From the sequence record LR746311: a stretch of 64,000 nucleotides of DNA; one strand, given 5' to 3'. This DNA comes from Shigella phage vB_SsoM_113. Position 1 is the stretch's first letter, and each line of letters opens with the position of its first letter. The notes under the pieces are model-generated. The model was given only the letters and a program-made list of their open reading frames with translations, was not told the origin of the DNA and did no database searches. This document shows positions 14,181 to 59,539 of the stretch, in pieces. Both the position numbers and the translations under genes were made by a program.

Positions 14181-14921
14181 ATGATTAACGATTATATGAC
14201 AGTTGAAGAAATCCGTCTTGATTTGGGTCTTGCATTAAAGGAAAAAGATTTCGTAATTGATAAAACTGGTGTTAAAACTATTGAAATTATTGGTGCATCA
14301 TTTGTAGCAGATGAACCTTTTATTTTTGGCGCTCTTAATGATGAATACATTCAGCGTGAACTTGAATGGTATAAGTCTCAAAGTCTGTTTGTTAAAGATA
14401 TTCCAGGTGAAACACCGAAGATTTGGCAACAGGTAGCATCTTCTAAAGGCGAAATTAACTCAAATTATGGTTGGGCCATCTGGTCAGAAGATAACTATGC
14501 CCAGTATGATATGTGTTTAGCTGAACTTGGTCAAAATCCTGATTCTCGACGTGGTATCATGATTTATACTCGTCCATCTATGCAGTTTGACTACAATAAA
14601 GATGGTATGTCAGATTTCATGTGTACGAATACCGTACAGTATCTGATTCGTGACAAGAAAGTCAATGCAGTTGTTAATATGAGAAGCAATGACTGCTGGG
14701 CAGGCTATCGTAATGATTATGCATGGCAAAAATACGTACTAGATAAATTAGTATCTGATTTGAATGCAGGCGACCCATCGCGGCAATATAAAGCAGGTTC
14801 TATTATATGGAACGTTGGAAGTCTTCATGTGTACGAAAATCAGTTTTATTTAGTTGACCATTGGTGGAACACTGGTGAAACTCATATTGCTAAAAAGGAT
14901 TATACTGGAAAATGGAAGTAA
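14181..14921 (+). CDS. 42: dCMP hydroxymethylase gp42
   Basis: 246-aa product MINDYMTVEEIRLDLGLALKEKDF, recognised as T4 gp42. Confidence 0.95.
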   Translation: MINDYMTVEEIRLDLGLALKEKDFVIDKTGVKTIEIIGASFVADEPFIFGALNDEYIQRELEWYKSQSLFVKDIPGETPKIWQQVASSKGEINSNYGWAIWSEDNYAQYDMCLAELGQNPDSRRGIMIYTRPSMQFDYNKDGMSDFMCTNTVQYLIRDKKVNAVVNMRSNDCWAGYRNDYAWQKYVLDKLVSDLNAGDPSRQYKAGSIIWNVGSLHVYENQFYLVDHWWNTGETHIAKKDYTGKWK

Positions 14922-15553
14922 ATGTGCCACATGTTTATAAGTATAAACATCCTAAAACTAAAAAGTGGTATATAGGAAGTCATGATGGTCACAACCCAAA
15001 TTATGATGGTTCGGGTGTAGTTTGGCAACATGCTAAAAAGAAATATGGAATAAAATCCTTTAATAAAGAAATATTATATGAAGGACCAATGTTTAGACAG
15101 GTTGAAGAAATTATTTTAACTTGTTTAGATGCTGCTAATTGTCCGGATTCATATAATTTAAAGAATGAAGCATGGGGAGGAAGTTTTCCAGGCAAATTAA
15201 ATGGAATGTACGGTAAAAAACTATCTCCAGAAGAAAGATATAAGTGCGGAAATGCCTTTCGTGGAATCAAGCGTCCTGATCATTCTAAAAGAATGAAAGG
15301 CGAAGGTAATCCAATGTATGGTAAAAATGAGCAGGCATATGGAATTATAAATCGAGCAAAGGAAAATTCTGGTAAAACTTATGAAGAAATTTTTGGCGCA
15401 GAAAAAGCTAAAATAATTAAAGAAACGATGTCTAAAAATCGTAAAGGAAAACCTCATAATTTGATAGAAAAAATATGTCCGCATTGCGGACTAAAAGGAC
15501 GTGGGCCAAATATGACAAGATACCATTTTGACAAATGTAAGGCACTTAAATGA
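14912..15553 (+). CDS. GIY-YIG homing endonuclease-like protein with NUMOD-like repeats and C-terminal zinc finger
   Basis: VY-x10-YIGS motif; repeats MYGKKLSPEERYK / NPMYGKN; CPHCG...C at C-terminus. Confidence 0.7.
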   Translation: MEVNVPHVYKYKHPKTKKWYIGSHDGHNPNYDGSGVVWQHAKKKYGIKSFNKEILYEGPMFRQVEEIILTCLDAANCPDSYNLKNEAWGGSFPGKLNGMYGKKLSPEERYKCGNAFRGIKRPDHSKRMKGEGNPMYGKNEQAYGIINRAKENSGKTYEEIFGAEKAKIIKETMSKNRKGKPHNLIEKICPHCGLKGRGPNMTRYHFDKCKALK

Positions 15554-16392
15554 TTCAATTCGTAATTCCAAGCTATCAACGCGTAGGGGCAGTTTCTGCC
15601 CTTGATATGTTTCCATCTGATTATGAACCACATATTGTAGTACGTAAACATGAAGAAAAAGCTTATTATGATGCTTACGGGTCTAGAGCCAAAATTATAA
15701 CTATTCCTGATGATGTCAATGGAATTGCTGGTACTCGTAAAGCAATTACTGATATGTATGCAGGTCAACGAATTTGGATGATTGATGATGATACTACTAT
15801 TCGTATGAGTTCAATGCGAAAAAGAGATGATCGTCGCTGCGTAGATAAAATTAATCAGTTAACTCGTGAACAGTTCTATGAATTGATTCAATACGTCGAA
15901 GATGCCATGGATTGTGGGTATTATCACGGTCATGCTCGTCTACCTATTTTTAAAATTACTTCATCTTGGGGTAATTATCGTGAAAATTCATATGGATTCA
16001 CGAATACTTGGTATGACCTCGGGAAACTTACAACAGAACAAATTGGATATGGAAAAATTGATTTATGCGAAGATATGTATGCATTTCTCAATTTAATTAA
16101 TCAAGGTTATCCGCATTTGGCCTTGTTCAAATATCTGGTTGTATCTGGAAAAGCGCAAGCTCCAGGCGGATGTAGTTCAATTCGTAGTAATTCAAAACAT
16201 AATAGAGCTCTTGAGCAAATCAATAGAGAGTTTCCAGAGCAAGCTCGTTGGAAAACATCGAATATTGAAAAGAGAAAATCGTTGGGTGAAGAAGACGAGC
16301 CATTAAAGGTTCTTCGCATGTGTGTTTCGCGCAAAGAAAAATCAGAAGCGTTTCATAAGTTTAATGCTATTCATCCAATAGCAGTTGATTAA
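15550..16392 (+). CDS. GT-A fold glycosyltransferase (probable DNA glucosyl-HMC modifying enzyme)
   Basis: N-terminal FVIPSYQR and DDD (DxD) motifs typical of GT-A; sits where T4 has beta-gt. Confidence 0.7.
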   Translation: MIQFVIPSYQRVGAVSALDMFPSDYEPHIVVRKHEEKAYYDAYGSRAKIITIPDDVNGIAGTRKAITDMYAGQRIWMIDDDTTIRMSSMRKRDDRRCVDKINQLTREQFYELIQYVEDAMDCGYYHGHARLPIFKITSSWGNYRENSYGFTNTWYDLGKLTTEQIGYGKIDLCEDMYAFLNLINQGYPHLALFKYLVVSGKAQAPGGCSSIRSNSKHNRALEQINREFPEQARWKTSNIEKRKSLGEEDEPLKVLRMCVSRKEKSEAFHKFNAIHPIAVD

Positions 16393-16469
16393 TGCCTAAA
16401 TTTATTGTGTTATAATTACTTTATCTTTAACCAGTGAGGAAAATATAATGATGCCTATGGAAAAAATGA

Positions 16470-58906: not shown

Positions 58907-59539
58907 ATGAATATAGTATATTGGTTTACATTTGAAGACCGTGTCAAAAATAAGACTCCGCCATACTACTATATCGGTAGTAAATTAAATTGCTCATTTG
59001 AGAACGGAATAATATATGACTCTTCCGGAAAGGAATACTGGAGCTCATGTAAACAAAAAAGATTTTTGAATGCGGTAATGCTTCAAAAACCGAGCGTTAA
59101 AATAATTCAAATTGATGATGACTTGGATGTTATTGAAGCAGAACGAAAATACCAACTTGAAGTAAATGCCAGAGATAATCCAGATTATTTCAATCTGGTA
59201 TATGCTGGTGGTGGATTTGGTGTGAGTGGTGAAACTCATCCAGCCAAAGACCCGGAAGTTAGAGAGCATATGAGATTGGCTAATTATATGAACCGTGACG
59301 ATTTTAGACCTTGGAAAACATCACGAGCTAATATAGAGTCTTGGAAATTATCTCATATTGCTTACGAGAATTATGTGTTATTATTATCCTCTAATCTTTA
59401 CGGTAAAACTCCTGGATGGCGAAGAGTTAAAGGTAATATAAATATAACTGATACAACTGCTAAATCGATGGTAAAGTATTTCAACTCAGGTTGGATACCT
59501 CTCGAAGACCCAGAGTATTGCGAATTATGCCAGCTATGA
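58907..59539 (+). CDS. GIY-YIG homing endonuclease-like protein (SegG-like by position, upstream of gene 32)
   Basis: N-terminal ...VY...YYYIGSK motif; paralogous to the 3357 ORF. Confidence 0.65.
   Translation: MNIVYWFTFEDRVKNKTPPYYYIGSKLNCSFENGIIYDSSGKEYWSSCKQKRFLNAVMLQKPSVKIIQIDDDLDVIEAERKYQLEVNARDNPDYFNLVYAGGGFGVSGETHPAKDPEVREHMRLANYMNRDDFRPWKTSRANIESWKLSHIAYENYVLLLSSNLYGKTPGWRRVKGNINITDTTAKSMVKYFNSGWIPLEDPEYCELCQL

Follow-up and report, generated by a model that had tools for sequence, protein, structure and literature searches.

What is the open reading frame (ORF) that stands between gene 42 and a glycosyltransferase gene in the Shigella phage vB_SsoM_113, and how did it come to be there? 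The stretch of phage DNA analysed in this work (sequence record LR746311, 64,000 nucleotides, referred to below as the window) is a segment of a T2/T6-type Tequatrovirus genome in which the genes follow one another in the order 43, imm.1, imm, 42.1, 42, ORF, beta-glucosyl-HMC-alpha-glucosyltransferase (HMC, hydroxymethylcytosine), uvsX, 40 and 41. Gene 42 codes for the deoxycytidine monophosphate (dCMP) hydroxymethylase, gp42. A first-pass annotation, made by reading the sequence, had taken the ORF for a GIY-YIG endonuclease-like gene that seemed to have homed into a site between two DNA-modification genes. The analysis described here makes it quite probable that the ORF codes for a homing endonuclease of the Seg type of T-even phages, as a free-standing ("intronless") gene whose lineage has specialised on the 3' end of gene 42. 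Its product is a new, uncharacterised member of the Seg subclass of GIY-YIG nucleases, and the gene would be selfish DNA of an ordinary sort.

The protein and its active site

The ORF is not a chance reading frame, since its product has 69 homologues in the protein database, evolves under purifying selection (the ratio of nonsynonymous to synonymous substitution rates, dN/dS, is 0.16-0.45 against five homologues), matches the "homing endonuclease" family PHROG 314 (1.8e-31) and shares the fold of I-TevI. Searches with the single sequence were weak, and the identity of the protein was resolved through a family profile, for which 48 of the homologues were aligned, and through a structure model. 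The best PDB matches of the family profile are to the I-TevI catalytic domain (1LN0 and 1MK0, E 0.008), and the AlphaFold model of the endonuclease, with a predicted local distance difference test score (pLDDT) of 88.6, has an alpha/beta fold of the I-TevI catalytic-domain type, i.e., a three-stranded sheet with flanking helices. Among the 48 family members, 17 are matched by the Pfam model SegE_GIY-YIG (PF19835), seven by GIY-YIG and 34 by NUMOD3 (PF07460) at E<=0.01, with a best value of 4.5e-10. PADLOC also reports a HEase match (1.1e-09); a defence-system nuclease was ruled out, the PADLOC matches being confined to its "HEase" models. A match to an ABC transporter, returned by phmmer against the PDB for the single sequence, is spurious.

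All the motifs named in the first-pass annotation, namely VY-x10-YIGS, NUMOD-like repeats and a CPHCG...C finger, can be read from the sequence. In the nuclease domain V8-Y9 is followed, ten residues later, by Y20-I21-G22-S23. The residues Y9, Y20 and G22 are the equivalents of Y6, Y17 and G19 of I-TevI, E65 is the equivalent of the metal-binding E75, and N82 that of N90. None of these catalytic residues has been lost from the family, where they are conserved at 85-100% (Y9 in 95%, Y20 in 100%, G22 in 100%, E65 in 85% and N82 in 100% of the 48 aligned sequences). SegB no longer cleaves when its YIG motif is mutated (Y17A/G19A; PMC13096335). By analogy with such characterised enzymes, the protein would be an active nuclease. 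Downstream of the nuclease domain, the two repeats have the cores N-G-M-Y-G-K (residues 97-102) and N-P-M-Y-G-K (133-138), and helices are predicted by the structure model at residues 106-112, 123-127, 140-152 and 157-177. The helices of this NUMOD3-type part would contact the minor groove of the DNA.

The C-terminal zinc finger that the first-pass annotation had noticed is indeed present, and its assignment can be refined: the finger is of the I-TevIII type, not of the I-TevI type, as judged by its motif, its alignment and its predicted beta-beta-alpha structure. It starts with C189-P-H-C192, its further ligands are H205 and C209, and it is modelled with strands at residues 186-188 and 195-197 and a helix at 199-208. 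It aligns with both fingers of the I-TevIII remnant of T4. In I-TevIII, zinc binding by the motif CX2CX12-13HX3C has been demonstrated, as has its requirement for DNA binding (PMC1865063), and by analogy the finger described here would bind zinc as well. No Pfam model matches a finger of this type in a Pfam scan. The string CP(H/Y)C-x8-9-NMTRYHFD(N/K)C is near-invariant at the C-terminus of 51 distinct phage proteins (including those of loci L013-L084), where it is joined to N-termini of three kinds, Seg-type GIY-YIG, canonical GIY-YIG or HNH. A perfect palindrome, GTCCGC-ATT-GCGGAC, lies at 15477-15491 within the CPHCG codons of the finger; it is terminator-like on the minus strand and is probably coincidental.

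Comparison with known endonucleases

The first-pass annotation had pointed to SegA-SegG of T4 as the proteins to be compared, and these were taken from the T4 genome and compared by BLASTP. The relationship is significant for SegA-E, whose matches span 88-167 residues: SegC is 36% identical over 117 residues (E 3.6e-12), SegB 36% (3.2e-10), SegD 31% (2.1e-09), SegA 32% (6e-08) and SegE 36% (2e-06). The match to SegF is marginal (33% over 55 residues, E 1e-3), and BLASTP gave no match to SegG or to I-TevI. With SegA-E the protein has in common the succession Y-x-Y ... YIG-x-H ... Y-x-GSG ... KYG ... E ... YN-x-K-x-GG and a short linker, and, like the seg genes of T4, its gene stands alone between conserved genes and has a sporadic distribution among relatives. 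However, the similarity stops at the nuclease domain and none of the T4 Seg proteins has a C2HC finger. The locus differs as well: in T4, no gene separates gene 42 from the glucosyltransferase gene, and segA is found one gap further along, between beta-gt and uvsX. The idea that the ORF is an orthologue of one of the named T4 Seg proteins (A-G) was rejected on these grounds: the similarity is N-terminal only and does not exceed 36%, and the T4 junction is empty.

SegF offers a parallel of another kind. Its gene, located between gene 56 and soc, directly follows a gene of nucleotide metabolism, as the ORF does, and gene 56 is listed as its cleavage target (PMC2988022). SegF differs from the protein described here in its C-terminal domain, besides the marginal similarity in sequence. 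According to Belle et al. (2002), repair reportedly swaps the 3' part of the T2 gene for the T4 version, with the SegF cut lying about 210 bp from segF. At the locus studied here, a block of 230 bp at the 3' end of gene 42 moves together with the endonuclease gene.

I-TevI, the best structural match of the nuclease domain, has the same modular build, with a nuclease, a linker and a DNA-binding region, and td, the gene that hosts it, is paralogous to gene 42. It differs in being intron-encoded (in td) and in possessing an Arg27 helix, a C4 finger that acts as a ruler and a helix-turn-helix domain. I-TevIII, from the nrdB intron, has the identical finger motif, but it carries two fingers, an HNH nuclease and is a dimer, whereas the endonuclease described here combines one finger with a GIY-YIG nuclease.

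In GenBank, the product is a "hypothetical protein" in nearly all of the 77 records in which the gene was found; two records call part of the gene "homing endonuclease" and one notes the CDD domain GIY-YIG_SegABCDEFG. A literature search found neither a seg gene at gene 42 nor the NMTRYHF finger, which is weak evidence of absence given that most subscription journals lie outside such a search. As for the description of the ORF as the second endonuclease of this kind in the window, it holds: the other one, presumably the "first" GIY-YIG endonuclease of the annotation, is a copy of SegG, a 210-residue ORF at 58907-59536 on the plus strand that is 99.5% identical to the T4 protein. The genes segA and segF are not in the window.

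A transferable cassette in Tequatrovirus

Of approximately 500 Tequatrovirus records, 77 contain the ORF, 71 of them at an identity of at least 99%. In most of the approximately 420 gene 42 records without it, gene 42 is directly joined to the glycosyltransferase gene, and in the remaining ones a different gene lies downstream of gene 42. The insert, 632 bp in length, sits exactly between TGG and AAATGA of T2; gene 42 gains from it a different final codon and stop (AAG TAA), and the insert ends immediately ahead of the AAATGA of the original junction.

Eight carriers, four T2-type non-carriers and two odd non-carriers were compared base by base. The ORF and the adjoining block of gene 42 are 98-100% identical among the eight carriers. 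The flanks to the left of 14682 and to the right of 15553 are only 92-97% identical from carrier to carrier, i.e., they are as diverse as in comparisons with non-carriers. As the identity is confined to the gene 42 block and the ORF, the two together constitute an 872-bp transferable cassette (14682-15553), and this cassette has spread horizontally through the group. The proposal of the first-pass annotation that the gene homed into this locus is thus supported by an exact presence/absence polymorphism and by a near-identical insert in diverged genomes, and homing, by analogy with the T4 Seg enzymes, would be the mechanism of the transfer. In REP2 (L002), REP3 and BCH953P2, a deletion of one nucleotide in a run of six A at 15215 splits the ORF, which reflects either real decay or a homopolymer sequencing error.

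The 230-bp block that travels with the ORF recodes gp42, with CWAGY...ENQ...IAKKDYTG in place of VVFGF...SRH...IVKKDYNG. There are 39 fixed differences between the eight carriers and the four T2-type phages, all of them inside 14682-14912, and across the population the identity of the block is bimodal, being at least 95% in 84 records, 80-90% in 406 and in between in two. In this block, the window is 69.7% identical to Jiaodavirus KPN6, which also carries the endonuclease, compared with 60.7% between T2 and KPN6, and the greater closeness of the window to KPN6 is limited to the block and does not extend to the rest of gene 42. The donor-type block is also present in seven phages without the ORF, in which it switches at three or more different points at 14858-14891; these phages are possibly partial conversions.

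Two further observations concern the neighbourhood of the insert. Escherichia phage 215Ecol030PP (L173, 3717-4382) has, in addition to the ORF, a second seg-like gene, annotated as segB-like, between the glycosyltransferase gene and uvsX; this is the position of segA in T4, and the window has only a 77-nt gap there (16393-16469). In phage RPN226 (L169, 3790-5212), uvsX is annotated as a short coding sequence of 930 nt followed by a separate coding sequence and may be interrupted or frameshifted.

Relatives at gene 42 in other lineages

The association with gene 42 reaches across genera. In Klebsiella phage KPN6 (Jiaodavirus) and in four environmental lineages, gene 42 is immediately followed by a relative of the endonuclease, at 58-70% identity; gp42 is 49-72% identical there and the downstream genes are different ones. 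What the first-pass annotation had described as a placement between two modification genes is therefore correct in part: the association with gene 42 is conserved, but the downstream modification gene does not belong to it. These lineages have independent empty sites of their own, as seen by comparing loci L097, L098, L099 and L101 with L100 and L102, and L103 with L100. In loci L025-L028 gene 42 is followed by a different GIY-YIG nuclease of the canonical type that has the same tail of NUMOD3 and finger. In L148-L150 (at about 2489-2692), directly after gp42, there is a remnant of about 50 residues that comprises the final helix and the zinc finger and is analogous to the truncated I-TevIII of T4.

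Some related ORFs were seen elsewhere in such genomes. In L109 (636-1319) and L110 (314-997), a weaker seg-like ORF that scores about 64 bits against the family profile is found on the upstream side of gene 42 instead of the downstream side. In an environmental T4-like contig (L011, 5725-7548), a UvsX homologue runs into a Hint/intein-like stretch (GGCFEEGTLVRFADG...), after which there is an ORF of an HNH endonuclease with a related zinc finger.

Homing and its alternatives

If the endonuclease acts as SegA-G do, then in a mixed infection it would break both DNA strands of a co-infecting, endonuclease-less phage in the region of gene 42. The recombination functions of the phage would mend the break using the endonuclease-carrying genome as a template, and the repair would copy the 632-bp gene along with the adjoining 230 bp of gene 42. 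The cuts made by Seg enzymes lie in a conserved neighbour, hundreds of bp from the gene of the enzyme, and flanking markers are co-converted (PMC2988022); gene 42 is the likely carrier of the target site.

Several observations weigh against this interpretation. With the single endonuclease sequence, NUMOD3 scores 18.1 bits (residues 125-138), which is below the cutoff of 20.4, the Pfam scan gives no GIY-YIG match, and the score of NCBIfam TIGR01453 is below the curated cutoff. In the profile alignment, about nine residues are deleted over I-TevI residues 25-35, including the helix of the catalytic Arg27. The base-by-base sample is small (eight carriers and the seven ORF-less block carriers), and conversion tracts beyond the cassette are hardly detectable. 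Finally, the integrity of the block is explainable without an endonuclease, as hybrid gp42 alleles may be unfit. In approximately 100 gp42 loci, residues 173 and 220 (14682-14849 of the window) co-vary, W occurring with Q or N and V or I with H, and the pairing has no exceptions in 19 motif combinations. This suggests either a structural contact or two alternative active-site surroundings in the dCMP hydroxymethylase, and it means that epistasis at the protein level alone can keep the block whole. An argument in which the uneroded block and the switch points at 14858-14891 were marks of a recognition site or of target-site immunity was withdrawn, since the co-variation in gp42 explains both without a nuclease.

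The alternative that survives best is that the cassette is no longer, or never was, actively homing in Tequatroviruses: it would have entered once from a more distant T4-like phage and been passed on by the ordinary homologous recombination that is very frequent among T-even phages. The left edge is at 14682 in every carrier, as a single founding event predicts, the co-adapted residues of gp42 hold the block whole with no need of a nuclease, the flanks exhibit almost no extended co-conversion, and the ORF-less carriers of the block could be simple recombinants. However, the ORF is under purifying selection with all its catalytic and zinc-binding residues kept, and it is retained in 77 of the 85 block-bearing records. 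Its identity of at least 99% in 71 records, against a flank divergence of 3-8%, indicates a recent sweep across backgrounds. Moreover, the presence of the same gene at the same site in several genera that have their own empty sites is hard to account for without a site-specific drive. We consider a purely passive spread unlikely.

Still less likely is it that the protein is catalytically dead or domesticated and has a DNA-binding role, for example, as a regulator of the operon of gene 42 and the glycosyltransferase gene. This explanation draws on the deletion over Arg27 of I-TevI, a residue implicated in stabilising the phosphoanion intermediate (PMC5009752), and on the fact that I-TevI itself is also an autorepressor (PMC2988022). 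Yet the Arg27 helix is likewise replaced by a short linker in T4 SegA-E, which are tabulated as active enzymes (PMC2988022), so that its loss characterises the Seg subclass and is not a sign of decay; candidates for the stand-in of Arg27 are H24 (83% conserved), K44 (89%) and R62 (79%). Y20 and G22 are invariant in the family, and a sporadic distribution with decayed copies is unlike that of a useful regulator.

Least probable of all is a main role other than self-propagation, in phage exclusion or neighbour-gene amplification with homing as a by-product, for which one may cite that the exclusion of T2 markers rests on Seg cleavage (PMC2988022), that SegB drives segmental amplification of anti-defence loci (PMC13096335) and that the neighbouring genes make and decorate hydroxymethylcytosine, an anti-restriction trait, but which is at odds with the comparison of 20+ loci, none of which showed tandem repetition, and with the absence of the gene from about 85% of relatives.

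A possible cleavage site

Returning to homing as the preferred interpretation, three candidate cut sites can be named. One is the RSND region, about 230 bp upstream of the gene; the others are the ENQ/SRH patch, at a distance of about 70 bp on the same side, and the empty junction. The block starts at the first base of the codon for Arg168 in the MRSND motif of gp42, where carriers have AGA AGC and T2-type phages CGC TCA. In the independent pair L097/L100, differences cluster densely in a block whose end falls on the third base of this Arg codon. In T4 td, as checked directly on the codons, the CAACG motif of I-TevI spans the Gln-Arg codons of the homologous motif QRSVD (RSxD). The gp42 alleles followed by the gene are also of one kind: all 21 full-length copies and three remnants come after alleles of the form x-W-(A/S)-G-Y, whereas most ORF-less alleles are of the form x-V-F-G-(F/Y). 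The observations on block edges, alleles and switch points fit a break in gene 42 and are no proof of it.

We put forward, tentatively and as something rather doubtful, that the lineage is a specialist of the dCMP hydroxymethylase gene which would have brought a foreign C-terminal third of gp42, of the W/Q class, into Tequatroviruses of the V/H class, leaving a chimeric essential enzyme in about one-sixth of the phages. It may also cut at or near the codons of the active-site motif RSND (ATGCGCTCAAATGATGTGG), a position homologous to the cut made by I-TevI in td. Counting against this, RSND is the most conserved stretch of gene 42 and blocks of heterology would end there anyway, and the co-variation within gp42 holds the block together; that block edges coincide at the Arg codon of RSND is only a lead. 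If such a cut does take place, two unrelated GIY-YIG lineages would have converged on one catalytic motif of the fold shared by thymidylate synthase and dCMP hydroxymethylase.

Gene boundaries and expression

The coordinates of the features discussed above are collected in Table 1.

Table 1. Features at the gene 42 locus of the window and the evidence for them
Feature	Coordinates	Strand	Evidence or details
Probable Seg-like free-standing homing-endonuclease gene (ATG 14912 to TGA 15553, 213 residues)	14912..15553	+	ORF list; PHROG 314; PADLOC HEase; 69 homologues; dN/dS
GIY-YIG nuclease domain, Seg subtype, residues 1-94	14912..15193	+	Y9, Y20-I-G22, H24, Y31-x-G33-S-G35, E65, N82
Linker and DNA-binding helices, two NUMOD3-type repeats	15194..15466	+	NGMYGKK 97-103; GNPMYGKN 132-139
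I-TevIII-type C2HC zinc finger, C189-x2-C192-x12-H205-x3-C209 (CPHCGLKGRGPNMTRYHFDKC)	15467..15541	+	Ligands 89-93% conserved
Gene 42 (dCMP hydroxymethylase), upstream host gene	14181..14921	+	Pfam Thymidylat_synt 9.3e-15; so annotated in T2, T4, RB14
Diverged gene 42 3' block, co-inherited with the insert, gp42 residues 168-244	14682..14911	+	Fixed differences; bimodal identity
632-bp insert relative to ORF-less phages	14916..15547	+	Alignment with T2 and REP2
beta-glucosyl-HMC-alpha-glucosyltransferase gene, downstream neighbour, 280 residues	15550..16392	+	PHROG 842 2.5e-88; Pfam TAGT; T2/RB14 annotation

Provided that translation starts at the ATG at 14912, the coordinates bear out the gene structure given in the first-pass annotation: a 213-residue ORF overlaps by 10 nt the end of gene 42, whose last codons, AAG TAA, are at 14916-14921, and its TGA (15551-15553) overlaps the ATG of the glycosyltransferase gene (15550-15552) in an ATGA start-stop coupling. 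The choice of this start is not certain. An in-frame GTG at 14924, located 3 nt past the gene 42 stop and 5 nt after GGAAG, would give a protein of 209 residues whose N-terminus, MGYVYK..., is like that of most homologues, and there would then be no overlap with gene 42.

The region has no excess of sigma-70-like sites (17 found, 15.3 expected), no TATAAATA late promoter occurs within several kb, and folding of 14860-14970 revealed no significant RNA structure at the start of the gene (z-score +1.08). A MotA-box look-alike at 14888 was rejected by eye for its wrong spacing. Having no promoter of its own, the endonuclease gene is presumably expressed through read-through from gene 42 and translational coupling, and it is most likely that it is coupled on both sides. 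The insert would thereby spare the operon, as it supplies a new end of gene 42, its own start lies within gene 42 or 3 nt after it, and the ATGA overlap is recreated. A stem-loop, GGGGCAG-nnn-CTGCCC, followed by a T-rich run is present at 15584-15604 on the plus strand, no more than 55 nt into the glycosyltransferase gene. It is kept in T2 and in two other genera (L092, L093) and could reflect a coding constraint or be a regulatory hairpin.

Significance

At the level of annotation, the "hypothetical protein" of these phages can be renamed as a GIY-YIG homing endonuclease that is Seg-like and has a zinc finger of the I-TevIII type. Phylogenetic trees should not naively include the final 230 bp of gene 42, because the co-transferred foreign block makes gp42 look recombinant. 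For enzyme engineering, the family adds an architecture in which a GIY-YIG nuclease is combined with NUMOD3 repeats and a C2HC finger, the finger being common to GIY-YIG and HNH enzymes. With its full, frameshifted, truncated, empty and "converted-but-empty" alleles, the locus is a compact natural system, which can be used for studying intronless homing beside an essential gene whose residues limit the conversion tracts that are viable.

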